From NCBI GenBank assembly GCA_963803845.1, contig CAWDNZ010000004.1, forward strand, positions 962,572-1,026,571: a stretch of DNA of 64,000 bases, given 5' to 3'. How positions within the stretch are numbered: position 1 is the first letter of the stretch; each line of letters begins with the position of its first letter. Position numbers and translations under genes: made by a program. This DNA comes from an uncultured Acidimicrobiales bacterium. Its GTDB lineage: Bacteria > Actinomycetota > Acidimicrobiia > Acidimicrobiales > SZUA-35. This document shows positions 3,502 through 41,892 of the stretch, one piece after another. The notes beneath the pieces were generated by a model that made no database searches, was not told the DNA's origin, and saw only the letters and a list, made by a program, of their open reading frames with translations.

Positions 3502-5357
3502 TGTTCCCCAATCTCAAGAGAGACGTGGCCTTCCCAGTTGTGGGGTCACTGCTCCTCTTCGGTCTAGTGCTGGGCGCCGGCCTTATCTATCAGGTGCTGG
3601 TGGGCGGAGCATCCGAACGGCTCGTAACCGCAATGCTCATCGACGCAATAATGGTGATCGGTATCCAGATCTACATTGGAAATACCGGCGTCTTGTCCTT
3701 CGGTCATATCGGCTTTGGCGCCATCGCTGGCTACGCCTTCGCTGTTCTGGCGATTAGCCCCGAGCAGAAAGCCAAAGTCCTGCCCAACGCCCCATTCGGA
3801 CTCACCAACAATGGGCTCATTCCTGCGGGAGCAGTGGTAGTGGCCATCATCGTCACGGTGGCCGTGGCGGTTATCGTCGGTCTGGGTTTGGCCCGCTCGG
3901 GCGCTCAATCGGGGGCGGTATCGGCAACCGTCATAACCCTGGCGTTGCTCTTCGTGACACATGAGGTTGCTCGAAACTGGACCGAGCTAACCGGTGGCAA
4001 TCGAATCGGGCTGTCCTTCCAGATCGGCGGGAAGCTGAATTCCCGGATCCCGATTCTGCTGGCGCTGGCCGCGTCGATCGTGGTGGCGAGAGTGTTCGCC
4101 CAAAGCCGCAGTGGGCGATTGGCCGCGGCCGCCCGTGAAGACAATCTGGCCGCTCGCGCCATGGGCGTAAACCCGCTCGTGCAGCAGATGGTGGCCCTGC
4201 TGCTCTCCGTCGTTGTGGTCAGCGTTGCGGCTTCGTTGCGGGTGTTCGAGACCGGCACCATCCTCCCCAATCAGTTCTTCTTTTCCTATACCTTGCTCAC
4301 GCTCGTGATGTTGATCGTGGGCGGGCGCAACAGCGTCACCGGTGCAGTGGTGGGGACCATGGTGATCACCGCCGGAAGTGAGCTGGCCCGCCGTATGGGC
4401 ACGTCCGGATTTGAGTTCTTCGGGCTCGGACTCGACGACGCTCCGGCTGACTGGATCTTCCGAGAGGGTCTCCCCACTGTCTTTCTCGGCGCGGCCATGG
4501 TGGGCTTCATGATTTGGAGGCCCATTGGCCTACTGGATGATTGGGAACTGGATGAGTGGCTGTTCGAGCGATTTGGCCGAGGCGAGGATCTTCAGCCGAG
4601 TGGTCTCCCCGAGGTGGCCGACACTCCCGTGGCCCGCCTCGCCGCCACGGGGATCGATGTCCGCTTTGGAGGGTTTCAGGCGCTCGATCAGGCTGGCCTC
4701 ACAGCCACCAGTGGTGAAATCGTGGGGATCATCGGACCCAATGGCGCCGGGAAAACCACGCTGGTGAACGTGATCACCGGCATGGTTCCGCCGACCGCCG
4801 GCGAGTTTTCCATCGATGATCGGGATCTCACCCGGGCCCCGGCCCACATCCTGGCCAGGACAGGTTTGGTTCGGACCTTTCAGAACCTCCGGCTCTTCGG
4901 TGCGCTCACAGTTCGCGAGAACGTTGAGGCGGCGGCGCTGGTGGCCCGAGAACACCGGTCCCACCGCATTCTTCCCGATGCCGATTCACTTGTTGCCGAG
5001 GCGGGCTTGTGGGAACACCGTAATCGCCGGGCTCGGGAGCTGGATTACGGCAACTCCCGGCGGCTCGAGTTGGCTCGGGCGGCAGCCATGGCCCCGGCGT
5101 TCATGCTGCTCGACGAGCCCACCAGCGGCATGAGCGACACGGAGTCCATCACCATGATCGAGCAGGTGCGCCATATGGCTGCCACGGTGGGCGCCGGTGT
5201 GATCGTCATCGATCACGATCTCAACTTCATCACTGGGATCTCAGACCGAATCTACGTTCTCGATCAGGGCCAAGTCATCGCTGAGGGGACACCTACCGAG
5301 GTCCAGGCCGACCCGCTGGTTCAGGCCGCCTACCTGGGATACGAAGCGGAGGCGTAG
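3501..5357 (+). CDS. Fused LivM-like permease / LivG-like ATPase
   Basis: ATG at 3501 overlaps the livH TGA (TGATG). The track ORF from 3384 is an Arg-rich extension inside livH. N-terminal ~10 TM region, then C-terminal GPNGAGKTT...LLDEPTSG. Confidence 0.8.
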   Translation: MFPNLKRDVAFPVVGSLLLFGLVLGAGLIYQVLVGGASERLVTAMLIDAIMVIGIQIYIGNTGVLSFGHIGFGAIAGYAFAVLAISPEQKAKVLPNAPFGLTNNGLIPAGAVVVAIIVTVAVAVIVGLGLARSGAQSGAVSATVITLALLFVTHEVARNWTELTGGNRIGLSFQIGGKLNSRIPILLALAASIVVARVFAQSRSGRLAAAAREDNLAARAMGVNPLVQQMVALLLSVVVVSVAASLRVFETGTILPNQFFFSYTLLTLVMLIVGGRNSVTGAVVGTMVITAGSELARRMGTSGFEFFGLGLDDAPADWIFREGLPTVFLGAAMVGFMIWRPIGLLDDWELDEWLFERFGRGEDLQPSGLPEVADTPVARLAATGIDVRFGGFQALDQAGLTATSGEIVGIIGPNGAGKTTLVNVITGMVPPTAGEFSIDDRDLTRAPAHILARTGLVRTFQNLRLFGALTVRENVEAAALVAREHRSHRILPDADSLVAEAGLWEHRNRRARELDYGNSRRLELARAAAMAPAFMLLDEPTSGMSDTESITMIEQVRHMAATVGAGVIVIDHDLNFITGISDRIYVLDQGQVIAEGTPTEVQADPLVQAAYLGYEAEA

Positions 5358-7754: not shown

Positions 7755-9040
7755 TGTGCCCCGCAGCCCCAGCAACCTCTCCTGTGACCGGCCCGAACGT
7801 CACCGACGCATCGCTGTATCTGAACGGCATTCCCTATGACCGGTTTGAACAAATGCGAAACACGCCCGGTCTGGTGTGGCATCCTTACGGCGACGATGGG
7901 TTTTGGGCGGTCACGCGTCATAGCGAAATCAAGGAAGTCTCCAAGAACTCCGAGGTTTTCTCCTCGGCGATCGGGCACACCAATCTGTGGGACCTCGAAG
8001 CGGACGCGCTGGAAGCACGACGATCCCTTATCGACACCGACGGCGCCGACCACACTCGACTTCGCCGTCTGATCGCTCGCTCCTTTACGCCCAAGAATGT
8101 CCGCCGCTGGGAAGACACAGTTCGCTCCATCACCACCGAACTCTTGGACAAATTCGTGGCTGCCGGAGGTGGCGATTGGGTGGAGCTGGTGGCAGCCCCG
8201 TTGCCGATCCGGGTGATACTTACGATGCTTGGCGTCCCCGTGGAAGACGCTGGCTATTTGGTGGAGCTGTCCAATTATCTGGTGGAGGGCACGGGTGAGA
8301 GCCAGTCGATTCCCGCCGACGCTTTCGGCAACACCACCGAACTTCGCTTGCTGCCCTTCAACAGTCCGGCCAGCCATGCCCTCTATGAATACGGGGAGAA
8401 GCTGGCGGCGCTGCGAAGGGCGGACCCCCAGGACGATCTGGTGACCAGCCTTGTGCAAGCAGCCCAGGAGGAGGGCAACCGACTGAGCGGGAGCGAATAC
8501 CGCAATCTGTTCCATCTGCTGGTTTTCGCCGGCAACGAGACCACCCGTACCGCCATTTCCCATGGAGCGATCGCCTTGGCGGATCATCCCGACCAATGGG
8601 ATCGAATCCTCACCGATCGCAGTCTCATCGAGTCCGCCACCGAGGAGATTCTGCGGTGGTCCACGCCGGTGATGCACATGCGCCGCACCACCAGCTGTGC
8701 CACCGAGTTGGCGGGCACCCCGATCACTGCTGGTCAAAAAGTGGTGATGTGGTATGGCTCGGCCAACCGCGACGAAACCGTCTTTGATGATCCATTCATG
8801 TTCGATGTTGGCCGCGTCGACAACCCTCACTTCGCCTTCGGCGGCGGCGGGCATCACCTCTGCCTCGGCGCCTTCTTGGCCCGGTTGGAACTGATCATTC
8901 TGCTGGAGGAAATGACCACCAGGAACATATCCCTGGAACGAACGGGCGAACCTGTCCGCACCCCGTCCAATTTCGTTCACGGGATTCTCTCCGTTCACAT
9001 GACCGTCAGCACAAACCCCAGGAGTGACCAGCATGAGTGA
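7754..9040 (+). CDS. Cytochrome P450 (paralog 1)
   Basis: Heme loop FGGGGHHLCLG, AGNETT I-helix, EEILRW. GTG at 7754 overlaps the upstream TAG; 7721 and 7784 are alternative starts. Confidence 0.9.
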   Translation: MCPAAPATSPVTGPNVTDASLYLNGIPYDRFEQMRNTPGLVWHPYGDDGFWAVTRHSEIKEVSKNSEVFSSAIGHTNLWDLEADALEARRSLIDTDGADHTRLRRLIARSFTPKNVRRWEDTVRSITTELLDKFVAAGGGDWVELVAAPLPIRVILTMLGVPVEDAGYLVELSNYLVEGTGESQSIPADAFGNTTELRLLPFNSPASHALYEYGEKLAALRRADPQDDLVTSLVQAAQEEGNRLSGSEYRNLFHLLVFAGNETTRTAISHGAIALADHPDQWDRILTDRSLIESATEEILRWSTPVMHMRRTTSCATELAGTPITAGQKVVMWYGSANRDETVFDDPFMFDVGRVDNPHFAFGGGGHHLCLGAFLARLELIILLEEMTTRNISLERTGEPVRTPSNFVHGILSVHMTVSTNPRSDQHE

Positions 9041-11347: not shown

Positions 11348-12592
11348 GTGACCCCCGCCGCCGCGCCCATCGATTTGAACGATCCGGCAACGTTCGCGGC
11401 CGGGATTCCTCACGAGGGCTTTTCCCAGATGCGAGCCGCCCCGGGGTTGTGTTGGTCCCCCGCCGGCCGGGGCGCAACGGCCGGCTTCTGGTCTGTCGCT
11501 CGCCACGCCGATCTTGGTGTGGTCTCCCGCGACTCCGCAACCTATTCCTCGGCCGTCGGCCATATCCAGATCTACGACATCGACGTTGACGCTCTGGATG
11601 CTCGGGCCTCCATGATCGACATGGACCCGCCGATCCACACCCGGCTACGGCGACTGGTGAGTTCGGCATTCACTCCTCGACATGTGCTGGCCTACACCGC
11701 GGCGGTTCGAAACCGCATACGCGCCGCGCTGGATGACCTTCAGGTCAACGGCGGTGGAGACTGGGTGAAGACGGTGGCTGCTCCGATCCCGATTGGCGTG
11801 ATCTGCGATCTGATGGGTGTTCCTGAAGAGGATCATCGCTACATGATCGAACTCTCGGATCATCTCGTAGCAGGCACCGGACAGGAGCCGTTGGAGCCCA
11901 CTGCGTACGGCAACACCACCGAGCTCCGGCTGCTCCCGTTCAACAGCCCGGCCGCATCGGCGATGTCCGCCTACGCCAACAAACTGGCCGACCGCCGCCG
12001 CTTGGCTCCAACTGACGATCTGATCTCCAAACTGATTACGGCCGAGATCGACGGTGAGCGACTGACACCCGACGAGTTCGCCAACTTTTTCCGGCTCATG
12101 ATTTTCGCTGGCAACGAAACCACGCGGTCGTCCATGGCCCACCTCGCCCTTCACCTCCAGCAGTTCCCGGATGCGTTTGCCGCGGTGGAACGGGATCGCT
12201 CACTGCTCCCTGCCGTGGCAGATGAGGTCATCCGTTACTCCTCGCCCATCCTCTACTTCCGGCGCACGGTCACTAAGGCAACCGAACTCGCCGGCACCCC
12301 GCTGACCGTTGGCGACAAGGTTGTCATGTGGTATGCATCGGCCAACTTCGACGCAACGGTCTTTCCCTCACCGCAGGAGTTCCGGGTGGATCGGCCGTCG
12401 GTCCCTGCCCATGTGGCTTTCGGCGGCGGTGGGGCTCACTATTGCCTCGGCGCCTCCCTGGCCCGGCTGGAAGTTTCCGTACTCATCGACGAGATCCTCG
12501 ATCGGCGGTTGCGGCCGGTCTCCACCGGCCAGCCGATCTTTGTGGAATCCAACTTCGTCAACGGCATAGAGTCACTCCCGGTGCACCTATGA
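11348..12592 (+). CDS. Cytochrome P450 (paralog 2)
   Basis: FGGGGAHYCLG, AGNETT, GTG start. Clearly paralogous to P450-1 (shared GNTTELRLLPFNSPA). Confidence 0.9.
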   Translation: MTPAAAPIDLNDPATFAAGIPHEGFSQMRAAPGLCWSPAGRGATAGFWSVARHADLGVVSRDSATYSSAVGHIQIYDIDVDALDARASMIDMDPPIHTRLRRLVSSAFTPRHVLAYTAAVRNRIRAALDDLQVNGGGDWVKTVAAPIPIGVICDLMGVPEEDHRYMIELSDHLVAGTGQEPLEPTAYGNTTELRLLPFNSPAASAMSAYANKLADRRRLAPTDDLISKLITAEIDGERLTPDEFANFFRLMIFAGNETTRSSMAHLALHLQQFPDAFAAVERDRSLLPAVADEVIRYSSPILYFRRTVTKATELAGTPLTVGDKVVMWYASANFDATVFPSPQEFRVDRPSVPAHVAFGGGGAHYCLGASLARLEVSVLIDEILDRRLRPVSTGQPIFVESNFVNGIESLPVHL

Positions 12593-18169: not shown

Positions 18170-18293
18170 CCCGTGGTTCGATGACAGTGAGCTCCGATGA
18201 CCTGAGCTCCGATGACCTGAGCTCCGATGACCTGAGCTCCGATGACCCGTGGTTCGATGACAGGGCGTTCCGATGACAGGGTGGTCTCGATGA
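18166..18293 (+). repeat. Junction VNTR: nine ATGA start/stop overlaps spaced 15-17 nt, including 3 exact units of ATGACCTGAGCTCCG
   Basis: ATGA at 18166, 18181, 18197, 18212, 18227, 18242, 18257, 18273 and 18290, read directly. Confidence 0.95.
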
Positions 18294-19333
18294 CAGAGTG
18301 GCGGTGGGTGGAGCGTTACGCCCAGCAGTTTCGGGCCTGTGAGGTAGCGGCTGGCGATGTTGCCGTGGTGCTTTCGGAAACCACCAGCCGTCCGATCATC
18401 GTGGAGACCGCTCGTCTGGCCCTCGAGAGCCTCGGCGTCGCCGCCGTCCACGTGGCTGTTCCCACACCGCCCAATCCTGGTCCCGTGCCGATCCGATCCA
18501 CTGGGGCTTCGCAGGCCCTTGCTGGTCACCCGGCTGCCCTCGCTGCGCTCAGCACCGCCAGTTTCATCGTGGACTGCACCGTGGAGGGTTTGCTTCATGC
18601 CCCGGAGCTGGGCGCCATCTTGGCCGGCGGTGCCCGGGTGCTGATGATCTCCAACGAGCATCCGGAAAACACCGAGCGGTGGCCGCACGATCCCTCGCTT
18701 GCCCACCGGGTGGCTGATGGGCTCGCTCGGTTGGAGGCGGCCTCTACCATGCGGGTTGCCTCGGCTGCTGGCACCGACCTGACGATCAGGTTGACTGGAT
18801 CGTTTCGAACCGGATCGCATGGCTGGTGCAACGAGCCTGGGTCTATCGCCCACTGGCCGGGCGGACTTGTTCTGGCGTTCCCGGCCGAGGGTTCGGTGAA
18901 CGGCACCCTGGTTCTCGCGCCCGGTGATGTGAACCTCACCTTCAAGGAGTACCTACGGGAGACCGTGACGCTTACGATCGTGGCGGACTTCATCACCAAC
19001 ATCGAGGGCGACGGCGTTGACGCCGAGCTGTTCCGCTCCTATCTCGCGGCGTTCGGTGAGCCCGAGGCCTATGCCGTGAGCCACGTTGGCTGGGGCATGA
19101 ACACCGCAGCACGTTGGGACGCCATGGCCCTGTGGGACAAGGCCGATTTCAACGGGACCGAACTCCGGGCCTTCGCCGGCAACTTCCTGTACTCCACTGG
19201 CGCAAACGAAGTGGCCGGCCGGTTCTGCCGGGGCCATTTCGATTTGCCGATGCGAAACTGCACCGTTTCGTTGGACGGCGCGCCCATGGTAGTAGAAGGT
19301 GAACTGATCCCGGAGCTGCGTCCGGAGCCGTGA
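18290..19333 (+). CDS. NicX-like protein (2,5-dihydroxypyridine 5,6-dioxygenase / aminopeptidase-T fold family)
   Basis: C-terminal blocks SHVGWGMN, FAGNFLYSTGAN and GHFDLPMRNCTV resemble my recollection of NicX. Start could be 18242, 18257 or 18290 (all in frame). Confidence 0.65.
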   Translation: MTEWRWVERYAQQFRACEVAAGDVAVVLSETTSRPIIVETARLALESLGVAAVHVAVPTPPNPGPVPIRSTGASQALAGHPAALAALSTASFIVDCTVEGLLHAPELGAILAGGARVLMISNEHPENTERWPHDPSLAHRVADGLARLEAASTMRVASAAGTDLTIRLTGSFRTGSHGWCNEPGSIAHWPGGLVLAFPAEGSVNGTLVLAPGDVNLTFKEYLRETVTLTIVADFITNIEGDGVDAELFRSYLAAFGEPEAYAVSHVGWGMNTAARWDAMALWDKADFNGTELRAFAGNFLYSTGANEVAGRFCRGHFDLPMRNCTVSLDGAPMVVEGELIPELRPEP

Positions 19334-29098: not shown

Positions 29099-29464
29099 GT
29101 GTCAGAGTTCTTACGCCAGTACCTTCTGGTTGCCGTTTTCGGGGGCCTCGCTTTCGGGCTCGTCGCCGTCCTTATCGGGGCTGCGTCGTTGTTCCGTCCT
29201 AGCCGCCCCAGCACCGGCAAGGTGGAGAACTATGAGTCCGGCGTAGATCCGGTGGGATCCAGTTGGAGTCAGTCCCAGATCCGCTACTACATCTTTGCCC
29301 TGCTCTTTGTGATGTTCGATGTTGAAGCCGTTTTCATCTTTCCGTGGGCGGCCCGACTCGAAGCCTTCGGCTTCTTTGGTCTTGTGGAAATGACCATCTT
29401 CATTTTCATTCTTGCTCTCGGCCTGGCCTACGCCTGGCGAAAAGGAGTACTCAAATGGGTATGA
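29099..29464 (+). CDS. nuoA: NADH-quinone oxidoreductase subunit A
   Basis: YESGVDPVG...IRYYIFALLFVMFDVEAVFIFPWA. GTG at 29099 gives the usual ~121 aa. Confidence 0.9.
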   Translation: MSEFLRQYLLVAVFGGLAFGLVAVLIGAASLFRPSRPSTGKVENYESGVDPVGSSWSQSQIRYYIFALLFVMFDVEAVFIFPWAARLEAFGFFGLVEMTIFIFILALGLAYAWRKGVLKWV

Positions 29465-29675
29465 GCGTGGAATCAGTCTCCTCTCCACACGGGATCGCAG
29501 CTTTGCCTGACAGCTCGCAACGACGCGAAAGCGTGGGGCAGTTCGAGCCGAACCGGTTGACCCAGTTAGTGGAGCGCCGGGTAGGCGAGGCCTCCGTGGC
29601 CGGCGGAACGGCCCCCGGAGGGAGTAATGCTCCCTGTCGGGTCACACGCCGGCGAGTGGAAACAGGAGTACTCAG
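29455..29675 (+). repeat. 221-bp insertion between nuoA and nuoB that duplicates the nuoA-stop/nuoB-start junction and holds a reverse copy of the downstream array motif
   Basis: AGGAGTACTCAAATGGGT at 29443-29460 versus AGGAGTACTCAGATGGGT at 29664-29681. AACGGCCCCCGGAGGGA at 29607-29623 is the reverse complement of 40130-40146. Confidence 0.85.
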
Positions 29676-29685
29676 ATGGGTCTAG
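29455..29685 (+). CDS. Possible 76-aa relay ORF inside the insertion (starts like NuoB, ends like NuoA)
   Basis: MGMSVES...GVLRWV*. Its ATG lies 7 nt before the nuoA stop, and its own stop lies 7 nt after the nuoB ATG. No recognisable domain. Confidence 0.3.
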
Positions 29686-30179
29686 TGGAGTCAGGAAAGA
29701 TCCCCAAGCCGCTCACCACGTTGCTGAACATGAGCCGAAAGTACTCGCTGTGGGTGTACCAGTGGGGCCTCGCTTGCTGCGCCATCGAGATGGGTGCGGC
29801 GTTCGGCTCACCTCGCTATGACGTCATGCGGCTTGGTGTCATTCCGTTGCCTGCCAGCCCCCGTCAAGCCGATTTTGTGTGCGTCTCGGGCACCGTCACC
29901 GACAAGATGGCCCCCGCCGTCCGTCGGTTGTATGAGCAGATGCCCGAACCCAAGTACGTCATCAGCATGGGGTCCTGTGCAAACTGTGGCGGTCCCTACT
30001 GGGACAGCTACTCCGTCACCAAGGGCGTTGACCAGATCATTCCCGTGGATGTCTACGTGCCCGGCTGCCCGCCCCGTCCGGAGGCGTTGCTCGAAGGAAT
30101 CGTCCTTCTTCAAGAGATGATTCAGAACGAGGACATGGTCGAGAAGTGGAAAGGTGATCCCCTTGCCATCGTCCACTGA
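29676..30179 (+). CDS. nuoB: NADH-quinone oxidoreductase subunit B
   Basis: [29 protein letters not shown] (N2 cluster ligands). Confidence 0.95.
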
Positions 30180-38610: not shown

Positions 38611-40128
38611 ATGCTCTCTCTTCTCGCACAGATTGATCAGCCGGAGTTCCTCCGGCCAGACATCGACTGGCATGCTGTGGCGCCCGAGCTGCTGTTGCTC
38701 GGCGGTGGGGCCATCATCACCACGCTGGATTTGGTCTTCCTGGAGCGCGTCCGTAAATACATGCCCACCCTCACCGGGCTCACGTTTCTCATTCCACTGA
38801 TCGCCGTTCTCACGCTCTGGAACCAATCCGAGGATCTTCCCCGGGTAATGTTCGACGGCGCATACGTGGTGGATCGTTACTCGCTGGCTCTCAAGATCCT
38901 GTTCCTGCTGTCGGGTTATGTGGTTGTGCTGCTGTCCAGCGAGTACATGGCCGAGGGCGACTATTACGAAAGCGAGTTCTATCAGCTGTTGTCGGCATCG
39001 CTCCTAGGCATGATCGTCATGAGCTCGGCGCGTGATCTCATCTCGATCTTCGTCGCCCTCGAACTCATCTCCATCCCGGCCTACCTCATGGCGGCGTGGC
39101 GCAAGCGGGACCTCAAATCCAACGAAGCCGGCCTCAAATACATGCTGATGGGCGTATTCGCCAGCGGCATCATGCTGTATGGAATGAGCCTGCTTTATGG
39201 CTTCACCGGCGATACCAAGCTGTCCGCCATCGCCGGCGCTATTGGAAACGGTGGTGAAACGTCGCCGCTCATCACCTTGGCCATCGTGTTCACCGTGATC
39301 GGGTTCGGGTTCAAAGTGAGCGCCGTTCCGTTCCACACCTGGGCGCCGGACACCTATGAAGGCGCCCCCACGCCCCTCACCGCCTTCCTTGCCGTGGCCT
39401 CCAAGTCCGCCGGATTCGTGGCACTGATCAGCATCGTTCTGGTGGCGCTCCCAGCCCAGTCCAACGTGGTGGAGCCCCTCATGTGGGTCCTCTCCGCTCT
39501 GACCATGACCGTCGGCAACCTGATCGCCCTCCGTCAGACCAACATCGTCCGCATGCTGGCCTACTCCGGCGTGGCCCAGGCTGGCTACATGCTGGCGCCA
39601 CTCGCCGTGTTCGGCGACAACTTCACCGGAACCACCAACCCGGCGAACGCCATCGTCAACTACTTACTGGTCTATGCAGCCATGAACCTCGGAGCCTTCG
39701 CCGTGGTGCTGCTGGTGGCTCGCAAGACTCGCTCGGGTGAGATCGCCAGCTATGGCGGACTCATGAATTACGCCCCCGGGCTTGGCGCCGCCATGACGCT
39801 GTTCATGTTCTCCCTCGCCGGCATCCCGCCGGTGGGTGGCTGGTGGGCCAAGTTCCAGATCTTCAACGTTCTCACCCAGAACGGGTCCTGGGCCGGAATC
39901 TCCCTAGCGGTGATCGCAGCCGTGAACAGCGTGATCGCGGCGTTCTACTACCTGAACATCGCCAAGCAGATGTGGTTCCTGCCCGAACCGAACGAAGATC
40001 ACACCCCGATCGGCTTCCCGGCCCCACTGGCGATTGCTCTCGGCATCACCGTGATCGCCACCATCGTGTTCGGCATCCTGCCCGGCATCACCGGCGATCT
40101 CAGCGACTTCACCAACGTCGCGCTCTAA
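38611..40128 (+). CDS. nuoN: NADH-quinone oxidoreductase subunit N
   Basis: FKVSAVPFHTWAPDTYEGAPTP. ATG at 38611 lies just after the nuoM stop. Confidence 0.9.
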   Translation: MLSLLAQIDQPEFLRPDIDWHAVAPELLLLGGGAIITTLDLVFLERVRKYMPTLTGLTFLIPLIAVLTLWNQSEDLPRVMFDGAYVVDRYSLALKILFLLSGYVVVLLSSEYMAEGDYYESEFYQLLSASLLGMIVMSSARDLISIFVALELISIPAYLMAAWRKRDLKSNEAGLKYMLMGVFASGIMLYGMSLLYGFTGDTKLSAIAGAIGNGGETSPLITLAIVFTVIGFGFKVSAVPFHTWAPDTYEGAPTPLTAFLAVASKSAGFVALISIVLVALPAQSNVVEPLMWVLSALTMTVGNLIALRQTNIVRMLAYSGVAQAGYMLAPLAVFGDNFTGTTNPANAIVNYLLVYAAMNLGAFAVVLLVARKTRSGEIASYGGLMNYAPGLGAAMTLFMFSLAGIPPVGGWWAKFQIFNVLTQNGSWAGISLAVIAAVNSVIAAFYYLNIAKQMWFLPEPNEDHTPIGFPAPLAIALGITVIATIVFGILPGITGDLSDFTNVAL

Positions 40129-40810
40129 TTCCCTCCGGGGGCCGTTCAAACGCCACGGAGGCTTTGCCTTCGGCCTGGCGACAGATGCTTGCGTGGCTTT
40201 GTGTTTGACTGCATAGGGCTTCCCTCCGGGGGGCGTGCTCTGACTCCCTCCGGGGGCGTGCTCTGACTCCCTCCGGGGGGCGTTCCGCCGGGCACGCAGC
40301 CCTCGCCTTCGGCTTGGCGACAGATGCTTGCGTGGCTTTGTGTTTGACTGCGCAACGATTCCCTTCGGGGGCGTGCTCTGACTCCCTCCGGGGGCCGTTC
40401 AAACGCCACGGAGGCTTTGCCTTCGGCCTGCCAAAGATGCGTCAGAAACTGAATGCGTGACTGCATAGGGCTTCCCTTCGGGGGCGTGCTCTGACTCCCT
40501 CCGGGGGGCGTTCCGCCGGGCACGCAGCCCTCGCCTTCGGCCTGGCGACAGATGCTTGCGTGGCTTTGTGTTTGACTGCATAGGGCTTCCCTTCGGGGGC
40601 GTGCTCTGACTCCCTCCGGGGGGCGTTCCGCCGGGCACGCAGCCCTCGCCTTCGGCCTGGCGACAGATGCTTGCGTGGCTTTGTGTTTGACTGCATAGGG
40701 CTTCCCTCCGGGGGCCGTTCAAACGCCACGGAGGCTTTGCCTTCGGCCTGGCGACAGATGCTTGCGTGGCTTTGTGTTTGACTGCGCAACGATTCCCTCC
40801 GGGGGGCGTT
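40129..40810 (+). repeat. Mosaic (BIME-like) intergenic repeat array: 12 P motifs, 6 Y cores, 2 connector types, 5 mini-units
   Basis: Modules read directly. There is an exact 115-bp tandem duplication (40473-40587 and 40588-40702). Confidence 0.95.
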
Positions 40811-40935
40811 GTGGCCGTCCGAAACATCGCTGGTCGGTGTTCTGGCCGCTTGAACCTTCGAGTTTCGAACCTTCGGGCGGTCAGGTGCGTCGTCACCGAA
40901 GTTTCGAGCGGCCAGTTGACGCTTCCTACCCACAA

Positions 40936-41892
40936 CTAGTCCCACTCGGCGACCCAGAAAGCGCCGAGGCCGGTGGGGTCGGTGAGGGCTTCGGCTTCGG
41001 AGATTCGGCTGCGCATTCGCATGGCGTTGAGGTCTGGTTTGGAGGCATGCTCACGCCAGTAGGCGCGCCCTTCGGCAACCAAATCCCCGATTCCCATCTC
41101 GGCACAGAACTCCGCCTGGGTCCACGTCTTGGCCGGAAGCGGAAGCTGATCCAGAGGTACATCGGTGGTGATATCCCACCAACCGGGATCTCGCAGCGGG
41201 TCATTGGTGCGCTGATGCTCCCGATAGCACCGGAGCCAGCCTCCCCGGCGGGCGAGGTCCGCAGTTGTGGCGGCGCCGTAGTCGAACATCAGAACGCGTG
41301 CCGGTCTCCGATCCAGGATCGACTGCACCAATGCGGCAGCACCTCCCACGAGGGGATATTCGCCCTCGGCGAGGAGTGGCTCAGGGCAGGGCTGCCAAGC
41401 GATGGCCCCGTCGCCAACGAACGCTTCCTCACCACCTGCGGCCGAAGAGCGAACCCAACGAAACGGAACATTGTCCAGAAGTTCGTTGGCGATGACCACG
41501 GCCCCCTCAAGTGAGTCCGGAAGTTCCGAAGCCGTGGCGAGGTCGATCCCGTGCAACGTCCAGGCCCGGGCACATTCGGGTGCTGCTGCGGCGAGTGATC
41601 TCAGTAACGTGCCGGGCCCGGTTCCAACGTCGAAAACCCCCAAGCTCGCGGGCCTGCCCAGTTTGTTCCACACCTCGTTGATCCACCGCGCAACGAGGGT
41701 GCCGAAGAGTGGCCCGACTTCGGGGCTCGTGATGAAGTCACCGCCTCGCCTTCCGGCGATCCCGCGCCCCGACGTGTAGAAGCCGTCGGCGCCGTAGAGC
41801 GCCTGGGCTACGTACTCATCGAACCGCTGCACGGAGACGTCAATTGTTGATCTCGATGTCGGCGAACTCATAGGAACAAACGGCCCACTCAT
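40936..41892 (-). CDS. SAM-dependent methyltransferase, MidA/NDUFAF7 (DUF185) family
   Basis: GDFITSPEVGPLFG plus VFDVGTGPGTL motifs. Start uncertain (41892, 41871, or GTG 41832 just after the upstream stop). Confidence 0.75.
   Translation of the reverse strand: MSGPFVPMSSPTSRSTIDVSVQRFDEYVAQALYGADGFYTSGRGIAGRRGGDFITSPEVGPLFGTLVARWINEVWNKLGRPASLGVFDVGTGPGTLLRSLAAAAPECARAWTLHGIDLATASELPDSLEGAVVIANELLDNVPFRWVRSSAAGGEEAFVGDGAIAWQPCPEPLLAEGEYPLVGGAAALVQSILDRRPARVLMFDYGAATTADLARRGGWLRCYREHQRTNDPLRDPGWWDITTDVPLDQLPLPAKTWTQAEFCAEMGIGDLVAEGRAYWREHASKPDLNAMRMRSRISEAEALTDPTGLGAFWVAEWD

Follow-up and report, generated by a model that had tools for sequence, protein, structure and literature searches.

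The nuo operon in the 64,000-nt window (i.e., the whole stretch of DNA analyzed here, from an uncultured Acidimicrobiales bacterium) ends with nuoN, which encodes NADH-quinone oxidoreductase subunit N (38611–40128, + strand; ORF and gene call, 100% identical to P0001, PF00361) and whose last codons overlap the leader of the first unit of a repeat array. Beyond the array lie a non-repeat spacer (40811–40935), which has small repeats of its own (GAACCTTCG..) and partial similarity to the corresponding spacer of the related genome SS_bin_9, and the stop codon of a convergent gene for a SAM-dependent methyltransferase (40936–41892, − strand; PF02636 Methyltransf_28, E 2e-19), the NDUFAF7-like gene of the first-pass annotation. 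All relatives compared have the same convergent methyltransferase neighbor.

The array is a mosaic of a few modules, all on the + strand. The hairpin-forming module P (TCCCTYCGGGGG) occurs 12 times within 40130–40805, where chance predicts 0.09 copies in the whole window and a count of 13 was reached in 0 of 100 shuffles. Module X1 starts at 40142, 40395, and 40715, X2 at 40281, 40509, and 40624, and Y at 40176, 40315, 40543, 40658, and 40749, with a diverged copy (Y′) at 40429; the tails (t) are ATAGGGCT (four copies) or GCAACGAT (two copies). Five 23-nt mini-units, in which P is joined to the connector T (CGTGCTCTGAC), start at 40221, 40245, 40360, 40473, and 40588. Parsed in order, the array comprises long unit 1 (P X1 Y t1, 40130–40220; also an nhmmer match of 57 bits), two mini-units (40221–40267, TRF period 23; P-g-T at 40221–40244 and P-T at 40245–40267), long unit 2 (P X2 Y t2, 40268–40359), a mini-unit with the T variant of P followed by connector T (40360–40382), long unit 3 (P X1 Y′ t1, 40383–40472), two exact copies of a 115-bp segment (40473–40587 and 40588–40702, TRF period 115), each made of a mini-unit and a long unit (units 4, P X2 Y t1, and 5), long unit 6 (P X1 Y t2, 40703–40793), and a terminal P (40794–40805) followed by GCGTT, a truncated start of X2 that ends at 40810. 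What lies between successive P copies is thus repeated modules (T, or X-Y-t) rather than the unique spacers of a CRISPR array. The first-pass annotation had described this combinatorial make-up, and its module counts, coordinates, single orientation, and exact duplication were reproduced almost to the base. It had, however, begun the array one base past the nuoN TAA, while similarity starts ~10 nt inside the gene: 40119–40177 and 40372–40430 are 95% identical over 59 nt, and because of this identity CGCGCTCTAAT, the leader T0 at 40119–40129 (+ strand) that contains the nuoN stop codon (TAA, 40126–40128), can be matched to the internal connectors.

Could the array be a translated repeat protein, or simply a local duplication without any family behind it? 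The minus strand does carry long ORFs, though none of its three frames is fully open as had been claimed, since they contain 1, 1, and 2 stops (6, 6, and 4 on the plus strand). The repeat periods found by TRF (23, 91, 115, and 139) are in no case a multiple of three, a codon log-odds gene caller made no call within the array, and the minus-strand ORFs had no Pfam match, all of which agrees with the earlier judgment that the array is non-coding. With these results, and with the family seen in dozens of genomes (below), we treat both of these alternatives as refuted and assign them next to no probability.

A second copy lies upstream in the same operon. The spacer between nuoA and nuoB, which is ~31–34 nt long in relatives, is 212 nt in the window and holds a solitary P-X-Y unit (29528–29623, − strand; 84% over 92 nt to family locus L030) that is antisense to the operon and widens the nuoA–nuoB junction. 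The reverse-oriented relative reported earlier at this place is real, with 29583–29625 being 91–100% complementary to array units. A possible short direct repeat (CACAC) is all that flanks the insert; a 33-nt target-site duplication considered around it was weakened as a candidate, given that in insert-free relatives the end of nuoA already resembles the start of nuoB. A further family copy within a nuo operon, again antisense, occurs at locus L009.

The nuoN array itself is lineage-specific. Relatives at 84–88% NuoN identity have an empty site, with a 24-nt gap or overlapping genes after nuoN, and the array differs in length among closer relatives: SS_bin_9 has two P units where the window has 12, and the three independent assemblies L219, L220, and L221 have three units of another make-up. 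In the window NuoN ends in ..FTNVAL*, vs. ..FTNLAA[RN]* in the relatives at 84–88% identity; the family thus remodels an essential respiratory operon at its 3′ end, altering both the NuoN C-terminus and the context of its stop codon.

Far from being confined to this locus, the modules recur in many Acidimicrobiales metagenome-assembled genomes (MAGs), which disposes of the possibility that they occur nowhere else. An 18-mer scan of GTDB genomes returned at least 89 loci which, among the matches listed, belong overwhelmingly to Acidimicrobiales MAGs with several loci per MAG, the P-X combination was found in more than 60 loci across many such MAGs, and single genomes hold at least 12 (SS_bin_9) or at least 9 loci (CALEWY01); two of the scans were pattern-ascertained, and their counts are lower bounds. 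Profile searches of the collected loci brought the number of copies to 105 and then 229. [quoted passage not shown] Other MAGs contain mosaic arrays built from other module sets. Y is loosely conserved, mainly through its ..GGACTGC end, which homologous units in SS_bin_9 and other genomes share, and the exact Y core had no match in metagenome contigs. Upstream, a family-wide leader is enriched for C-T-G at positions −7 to −5 (variants YTGAY or CTGTAAY). TA is enriched at position −4 but is present in only 9 of 130 Acidimicrobiales copies, which lends weak support, in this order, to targeting of stop-codon TA by the element; clean termini, inverted repeats, and target-site duplications could not be defined for the Acidimicrobiales units. 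A rough tally that rests on home-made, approximate gene calls gives ~10 copies in sense and ~14 in antisense orientation between co-directional genes, ~12 between convergent genes, and ~7 between divergent genes, i.e., no clear orientation bias relative to genes.

The sequences of these copies support two small adjacent hairpins, CCC[UCC]GGG followed by N-CGU...ACG-N′, by covariation, in answer to the folding check that the first-pass annotation had proposed. Across 80 distinct cores, 98.2% of cells are paired under this two-hairpin model and 17 are double-change cells, a number that none of 500 shuffles attained; pair 17:34 is CG in 60, GC in 14, and UG in 3 cores, and pair 6:14 is CG in 74, GC in 3, and UG in 3. 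When N was left unconstrained, S = C went with N = G in 92 of 101 copies and S = G with N = C/T in 12 of 13 (Fisher p = 6e-10), and 19 phage copies (below) follow the same rule. A long-range helix joining P and X (CCUCCG:CGGAGG) was rejected, as it shows no covariation and has one pair broken in 18 of 80 copies, and an RNAalifold helix from 15 whole units, which is different, GC-driven, and almost free of covariation, was set aside. The Rfam search that had also been suggested matched no family at the gathering threshold anywhere in the window, yielded chance-level matches only at E up to 10 in 40000–41000, and left both the core of 30 metagenomic loci and the microvirus block described below without a match.

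Such structure invites the explanation that the array is a host-selected RNA element, i.e., that stable hairpins in the 3′ UTR of the nuo mRNA act as a terminator, as an insulator of the convergent methyltransferase gene, or as a shield of the transcript against 3′ exonucleases, and protection of mRNA 3′ ends from exonucleases is a known function of some E. coli REPs. The array is placed precisely where the last nuo gene ends, between convergent genes; its + strand RNA is more structured than shuffles (z −2.3) and its − strand is not (z +0.9), a difference that would fit an RNA-level role within the nuo-sense transcript and counts against reading the array as mobile DNA. Neighboring P copies at 40221–40267 can also pair with each other as RNA (−25.1 kcal/mol, z −2.1). 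Elsewhere, several sense-oriented family copies begin at a stop codon or immediately past the 3′ end of a tRNA. A T-run accompanies only the Solirubrobacterales version of the 18-mer, where it stands behind a long hairpin that encloses the 18-mer and makes up a canonical terminator with it. At the array, by contrast, the GC hairpin plus U-tract of an intrinsic (Rho-independent) terminator is lacking: we detected no U-tract, canonical terminator, or canonical promoter, and 39800–41200 contains 0 terminator-like sites vs. 1.9 expected in shuffles. Relatives do without an array, their genes lying 24 nt apart or overlapping; antisense copies between co-directional genes are about as frequent as sense ones (two of them lie within nuo operons), and microviruses carry the core in either orientation. 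None of the insulator, terminator, stabilizer, or sRNA roles that the first-pass annotation had offered found positive evidence. We consider a host-selected RNA element unlikely as the primary explanation, though a terminator or stabilizer role at nuoN is possible as a secondary one, in that a stable run of hairpins on the nuo transcript could block 3′ exonucleases or impede convergent transcription.

The conserved center of the unit extends well beyond the order. A 20-nt core (CGTTCANNCGCCACGSAGGC), with a variable hairpin ahead of it, is found as well inside TA-flanked MITE-like elements of Azospirillum and many metagenomic bacteria; these carriers are 125–190 bp long, have hairpin or inverted-repeat ends, and fall into several families, and in small elements with the core both ends are similar hairpins. 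Azospirillum replicons carry low-copy intergenic copies, which a core-centered query recovered, while a BLAST of a metagenomic MITE against plasmids had given no match. The 20-mer is conserved over genomes of 35–73% GC. In gut Microviridae the core lies, in either orientation, within a conserved non-coding block of ~100–130 nt that is the only sequence common to otherwise unrelated members; in PV067927.1 the block shares the strand of the genes, whereas Dulem virus 245 carries it on the other strand. A small ORF in the block, with its ATG in the loop of the upstream hairpin, was dismissed when it vanished in variants with other loops, and a nick-site reading of GATATCAAGG, which resembles CTTGATA, was abandoned because its strand is inconsistent among phage groups. 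Our literature searches by taxon, sequence string, and repeat class found no description of the family or the core. The earlier statement that this kind of genome has no described equivalent therefore stands insofar as no publication was found, although the core reaches far beyond such genomes; no repeat family of this type has apparently been described before in the Acidimicrobiales, an abundant and poorly cultivated order, and the core in MITE-like elements and single-stranded DNA (ssDNA) phages likewise seems undescribed.

That ssDNA phages share the core together with its covarying upstream hairpin raises the prospect of a single-strand DNA signal for a universal host enzyme, either a priming (single-strand initiation) site for complementary-strand synthesis or an HUH-type processing site. 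Such an enzyme would account for the presence of the signal in phages and small mobile elements, with the Acidimicrobiales repeats as its amplified form on chromosomes. The similar hairpin ends of the small elements fit this proposal, as do the U·G and A·C variants at N:N′, which suit single-strand pairing, and the retention of the 20-mer over so broad a range of base composition. Yet in at least one complete microvirus (PP511390.1), and in 5 of 16 scorable phage copies, the core lies opposite the gene strand, on what would not be the packaged strand, and a complementary-strand origin would be unworkable there; nor is there similarity to verifiable ssi or sso sequences. We rate such a host-enzyme signal as decidedly unlikely. 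More broadly, and tentatively, the hairpin plus N-CGUUCANNCGCCACG-N′-AGGC could be an undescribed, ancient functional module of ssDNA or RNA—either a site that a conserved enzyme recognizes or processes or a compact RNA motif, possibly with the geometry of a pseudoknot—common to the mosaic arrays of Acidimicrobiales, several unrelated TA-flanked MITE-like families of Alphaproteobacteria and other bacteria, and the non-coding block of gut Microviridae. Conservation of a ~35-nt core across the order and of the 20-mer across phyla goes beyond what is usual for neutral selfish DNA, hints at a selected function, and counts against the mobile-repeat reading given below. That repeats of actinobacteria, miniature elements of proteobacteria, and ssDNA phages have one core with a covarying hairpin in common points to a single conserved molecular reader, be it an enzyme or an RNA function, whose identification would explain how the elements move or why they are kept. 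If the functional-module reading were true, the nuoN array would be the chromosomal case in which a phage-borne mini-element found across phyla has been amplified the most.

On balance, we think it probable that the array is a lineage-specific instance of a dispersed, non-autonomous mobile repeat family that is widespread in Acidimicrobiales and was here amplified by local duplication. The basic unit consists of a short leader (..CTG..), the tiny GC hairpin P (CCC[UCC]GGG), and the conserved part of X, which is a second hairpin (N-CGU-loop-ACG-N′) with AGGC behind it; beyond these come a third GC hairpin, which is variable, and a tail with little conservation (Y, ending ..GACTGC). Before the window genome, SS_bin_9, and the L219 lineage diverged, their shared ancestor may have acquired one or a few such units at the 3′ end of nuoN. 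The window lineage would then have expanded them to 12 P-containing units, likely by unequal recombination or replication slippage between P copies and by exchange with copies elsewhere in the genome; the latest expansion event would be the exact 115-bp duplication. Intergenic sites, both orientations, and presence or absence at orthologous sites suggest that the family spreads as DNA. From these patterns we infer the mechanism of mobility and a mobilizing enzyme, with the hairpin plus core as the putative cis site that a candidate mobilizing or host enzyme would read in single-stranded form. No transposase gene with matching ends, and no mobilizing gene linked to the family, was found in the loci inspected.

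Small dispersed repeats (REP, BIME, MITE, and MIRU) shape genome plasticity and mRNA fate and are used as typing markers. REP sequences are imperfect palindromes of 20–40 nt, one end of which carries an unpaired tag, GTAG (or CGTC), their successive units alternate in orientation within BIMEs and REPINs, and they are usually species- or clade-specific (PMC3733652). Like those of Enterobacteria and Pseudomonas, the repeats described here are short, GC-rich, hairpin-forming, extragenic, and multi-copy, often lie directly past stop codons, form mosaic clusters with other short motifs, vary among close relatives, and invite proposals of mRNA stabilization or termination. The label “BIME-like” used in the first-pass annotation is therefore apt as an analogy to a mosaic and dispersed element, but not as a classification: the core (TCCCTCCGGGGG[C/G]CGTTC..ACG[G/C]AGGC) has neither the tag nor the 20–40-nt palindromic unit and contains instead two hairpins of 3–4 bp, and the 12 P copies and all X and Y modules run head-to-tail on the + strand without alternation. 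Furthermore, REPINs are mobilized by RAYT transposases, none of which is linked to the Acidimicrobiales family, and the core is conserved across phyla, unlike species- or clade-specific REP sequences.

The carriers outside Acidimicrobiales come closer to bacterial MITEs that duplicate TA (e.g., Correia/NEMIS of Neisseria and IS630/Tc1-type derivatives), being 125–190 bp long, non-coding, TA-flanked, intergenic, and bounded by inverted or hairpin ends; in the proteobacterial and metagenomic carriers, these ends and the TA flanks correspond to the terminal inverted repeats and target-site duplications of MITEs. The Acidimicrobiales units, on the other hand, have no clear inverted repeats and stand in direct tandem arrays, and the loci inspected held no parent IS. 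One internal 20-nt core common to several families with unrelated ends is also unexpected for deletion derivatives of different IS. Mycobacterial MIRUs offer another parallel as actinobacterial direct tandem repeats of ~50–100 bp in one orientation, located between genes of operons, touching stop or start codons, and variable in copy number. MIRUs are described as having small ORFs that are coupled to the flanking genes, while the units here (23, 91, 115, and 139 nt) are out of phase with codons, have no sequence similarity to MIRUs, form a mosaic rather than a uniform family, and occur in both orientations across Acidimicrobiales. A likeness by description only links them to RIMEs (Rhizobium-specific intergenic mosaic elements), which are likewise mosaic and intergenic and are composed of palindromic modules.

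The repeat array downstream of nuoN (38611..40128, + strand; array at 40129–40810) parses completely under a simple grammar: T P X1 Y t1 / P g T / P T / P X2 Y t2 / P T / P X1 Y' t1 / P T / P X2 Y t1 / P T / P X2 Y t1 / P X1 Y t2 / P gcgtt, where P is a tiny GC hairpin motif, X1 and X2 are connectors, Y (diverged copy, Y') is a core module and t1 and t2 are tails. Each P is followed either by T, an 11-nt connector, or by a long X-Y-tail module. The + strand of the array holds 12 copies of P (TCCCTYCGGGGG; 0.09 expected window-wide), three X1, three X2, five identical Y, one Y', five 23-nt mini-units and 8-nt tails of two kinds; Tandem Repeats Finder returns periods of 23, 91, 115 and 139, and 40473–40587 is exactly identical to 40588–40702. 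Reading 39900–41100 alongside pattern searches recovered all counts and start coordinates of the first-pass annotation, except that the array does not start one base past the nuoN TAA: its repeat register begins ~10 nt inside nuoN. Since 40119–40177 shares 95% identity with 40372–40430, connector T is the counterpart of the last nuoN codons and the TAA. Between the array and the stop codon of the convergent methyltransferase gene (40936..41892, − strand), a spacer (40811–40935) has short repeats of its own (GAACCTTCGAGTTTCGAACCTTCGGG; CACCGAAGTTTCGAGCGG) and shares ..GGTCAGGTGC.. with the spacer of SS_bin_9, an Acidimicrobiales MAG.

The array had been judged non-coding, and this held: the unit lengths are not divisible by three, no gene was called in 40129–40935 by a codon log-odds caller trained on long ORFs of related loci (the same run recovers the nuo operon), and four long minus-strand ORFs across the array have no Pfam match. 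The minus-strand frames, previously described as open throughout, each contain 1–2 stops, and the next real gene after the array encodes a Methyltransf_28 protein. The Rfam search suggested earlier matched no family on the array at gathering thresholds and gave only chance-level matches at E up to 10; no tRNAs were found, and 39800–41200 contains no sigma-70-like promoter and no hairpin-plus-T-run terminator. Readings of the array as a terminator, as CRISPR or as a member of an Rfam family were rejected. As RNA, its + strand is more stably folded than shuffles (−343.9 kcal/mol, z −2.3), unlike its − strand (z +0.9).

The modules belong to a family, as had been proposed for checking, and to a large one. 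In a sample of one genome per GTDB species, TCCCTCCGGGGGSCGTTC occurs at no fewer than 89 loci, and about two thirds of the matches listed come from MAGs of Acidimicrobiales or Acidimicrobiia, each with numerous loci (among the matches listed, at least 12 in SS_bin_9/JABDIY01, at least 9 in CALEWY01 and at least 6 in CALGOA01). True members share the signature TCCCTCCGGGGG[C/G]CGTTC-(2–9 nt)-GCCACG[G/C]AGGC, followed by a variable GC hairpin (GCCTTCGGC, GCCTCCGGGC or GCGCCGGAGGCGC); their profile counts at least 105 copies in the TCCCTCCGGGGGSCGTTC loci and at least 229 with later loci added. Tandem and mosaic organization is the rule—locus L088 repeats a 79-bp unit six times, CALEWY01 mixes short and long connectors, and CALGOA01 has additional modules in both orientations—and the P-X-Y layout of the window, with Y ending ..GGACTGC, recurs in SS_bin_9, L146, L030 and others. 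The window's exact Y core has no match in metagenome contigs.

By our own gene calls, family copies are almost all intergenic and lie in both orientations, with a rough tally, among the loci listed, of ~10 co-directional sense, ~14 co-directional antisense, ~12 convergent and ~7 divergent clusters; ~9 sense clusters start at an upstream stop codon and three start a few bases past a tRNA. Copies at L019, L032, L079 and L172 lie either ~8 nt (immediately) or ~160 nt 3′ of tRNA genes, in tRNA-sense orientation. The reverse complement of P (CCCCCGGAGGGA) includes a perfect Shine-Dalgarno GGAGG and, at L035 (6108–6166) and L086 (1676–1732), sits ~7 nt 5′ of the ATG of an opposite-strand gene, where the repeat may thus supply the ribosome-binding site. 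Solirubrobacterales MAGs (L012, L013, L039, L049, L058, L066, L087) carry GAGCGG-TCCCTCCGGGGG-CCGTTCGC and then a T-run; with a single long hairpin and U-tract around the 18-mer, this form is a predicted canonical intrinsic terminator, recurrent in another actinobacterial order.

Comparison of relatives, also proposed earlier, showed that unit number and type differ at the nuoN site. NuoN of the window is identical to a protein encoded on a 2.05-Mb contig, and an 'Acidimicrobiales bacterium' MAG contributes a protein to its 90% cluster. Family repeats are absent where NuoN identity is 84% (L090/L091, a repeat-free 24-nt gap to the methyltransferase gene), 85% (L095, the two genes overlap) or 88% (L093/L094, a 171–187-nt gap with no P, X or Y and a 17-nt tandem duplication of its own nuoN end), and 2–3 P units occur where NuoN clusters at 90% with that of the window (SS_bin_9, a 159-nt gap holding two P and a single X1-like module; L219/L220/L221, three independent assemblies, a 273-nt gap holding three differently composed P-X-Y units). 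The L093 (1935–1990) and L094 (1815–1880) duplications repeat the nuoN 3′ end, stop codon included, 3–4 times (GCCGCCAA[C/A]TA[A/G]CCCC), a different type of repeat expansion at this gene end. The filled and empty gaps suggest that the repeat colonized this site in the recent common ancestor of the repeat-bearing clade, and that unit number and type have since diverged completely. The window holds the largest expansion among the relatives compared, of which the perfect 115-bp duplicate would be the latest step. The NuoN C-terminus reads ..NLAA[R/N] in distant relatives, whereas the clade with repeats has ..N[LV]AL, and the nuoN end ..GCTCTAAT is similar to the family 5′ leader; we infer that the repeat replaced the last codons of nuoN and now provides its stop codon. 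The array may have a selected RNA role here, as a 3′ hairpin barrier, but the empty sites of relatives and the lack of orientation bias among family copies speak against it.

The nuoA–nuoB spacer, 212 nt in the window vs. 31–34 nt in relatives, tells the same story of insertion: the reverse-oriented relative reported there is a reversed P-X-Y unit. An Acidimicrobiaceae MAG (L009) also has an antisense family copy within its nuo operon. At 29442–29700, the nuoA end (GGAGTACTCAAATGGGTATGAGCGTGGAATCAG) and nuoB start (GGAGTACTCAGATGGGTCTAGTGGAGTCAGG) form direct repeats around the spacer, the first of which overlaps the nuoA stop and resembles the remnant of a nuoB start (MGMSVES vs. MGLVESG). 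Relatives with the 31–34-nt spacer have a weaker version of this direct repeat, which suggests that duplication of the junction is older than the repeat insertion.

Across 80 distinct cores (P and the conserved part of X), in an alignment whose P and start of X were preset by the first search pattern, two adjacent small hairpins fit well, CCC[UCC]GGG and then N-CGU..ACG-N′, with 98.2% of cells paired and 17 double-change cells, matched by 0/500 shuffles. The outer pair is C-G in 74, G-C in 3 and U-G in 3 for P, and C-G in 60, G-C in 14 and U-G in 3 for hairpin 2, whose loop spans 3 to 12 nt. A third possible helix, GCC[ACGSA]GGC, has weak support and crosses hairpin 2, and would thus be an alternative fold or pseudoknot partner; a long helix (CCUCCG:CGGAGG) was rejected, being broken in 18 sequences and devoid of covariation. 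To remove pattern bias, metagenomes were scanned with CGTTCANNCGCCACGSAGGC, in which P and N are both unconstrained, and the base before CGTTCA was G in 92 of 101 matches with C at S, the position covarying with N, and C or T in 12 of the 13 with G there (Fisher p = 6e-10).

Only about a dozen of the 126 metagenome matches listed are Acidimicrobiales-type; most have the same 20-mer core within unrelated flanks, on contigs of 35–73% GC. Their elements consist of a perfect variable-sequence hairpin, 1–2 bases, the core, 1–2 further GC hairpins and another variable hairpin; outside Acidimicrobiales they total 125–190 bp, are bounded by TA plus inverted or hairpin ends, and comprise at least four end-families. 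Azospirillum ramasamyi replicons carry the core in low-copy, unannotated intergenic elements (e.g., NZ_CP029830.1 381084–381222).

Viral contigs gave 43 matches in all, ~33 of them on low-GC contigs of 4–7.7 kb; one (L231) carries genes for both a Phage_F-like capsid protein and a REP_ORF2-G2P replication protein, another (L239) for the latter, and the annotated phages found by BLAST to bear the core are complete Microviridae genomes. The sole sequence common to these otherwise unrelated microviruses is a conserved, non-coding block without an Rfam match: ..GATAYYAWGGTGCTAGACGCTAAGG, a covarying hairpin, ATTGCNCCATCA, the core and then TTAAAGATACTA. N:S is G:C in 8, A:C in 2 and C:G in 9 of 19 distinct phage copies. 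A role as complementary-strand priming signal is attractive, but at odds with reversed copies: 11 copies run in the direction of the genes, 5 run against it and 3 are unclear. In PV067927.1 the block is downstream of rep on the gene strand; in Dulem virus 245 it lies on the opposite strand, with the pilot-protein gene on one side and the next ORF on the other. In PV067927.1 (L265), the block is just the 3′ part of ~280 nt 3′ of rep (4507–4790) that are far GC-richer than the 36% GC genome, apparently highly structured and without an Rfam match.

Intergenic dispersal in both orientations, orthologous sites filled or empty, fast array turnover with mosaic composition, and a core that occurs within MITE-like elements and forms an island in phage genomes all fit a non-autonomous, DNA-level repeat family that was amplified in place. 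In its behavior the array is similar to BIME/REP clusters and MITEs, and superficially to MIRUs. "BIME-like mosaic repeat family" stands as an analogy, but the features that define REP/BIME (a GTAG or CGTC tag, a 20–40-nt palindrome and alternating orientation; PMC3733652) are absent. As the first-pass annotation had supposed, no published description of the family was found in the literature searched, of which coverage was partial, and the array appears to be a variant of a known element kind, not previously described as far as that literature shows. Strict conservation and covariation argue that hairpin-plus-core would be read in single-stranded form, by some protein or through the chemistry of the element itself. 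Candidate readers are an HUH/Y1 enzyme, which would suit the ssDNA phages and elements with similar hairpins at either end, or an IS630-type DDE enzyme, which would suit the TA flanks. That one core is common to several phyla and ssDNA phages is potentially the more novel aspect.

Other repeats in the window include a 15–16-nt tandem repeat (CGCTGCCGATGATGG, ~7 times, 648–751), which lies within an ORF (556–1893) and so probably encodes a pentapeptide repeat, and another (CGATGACCTGAGCTC, ~4.5 times, 18179–18301) at a gene boundary. The segments 8321–8913 and 11903–12495, 3582 bp apart, are 74–82% identical, which indicates a putative paralogous gene pair in tandem-like arrangement.
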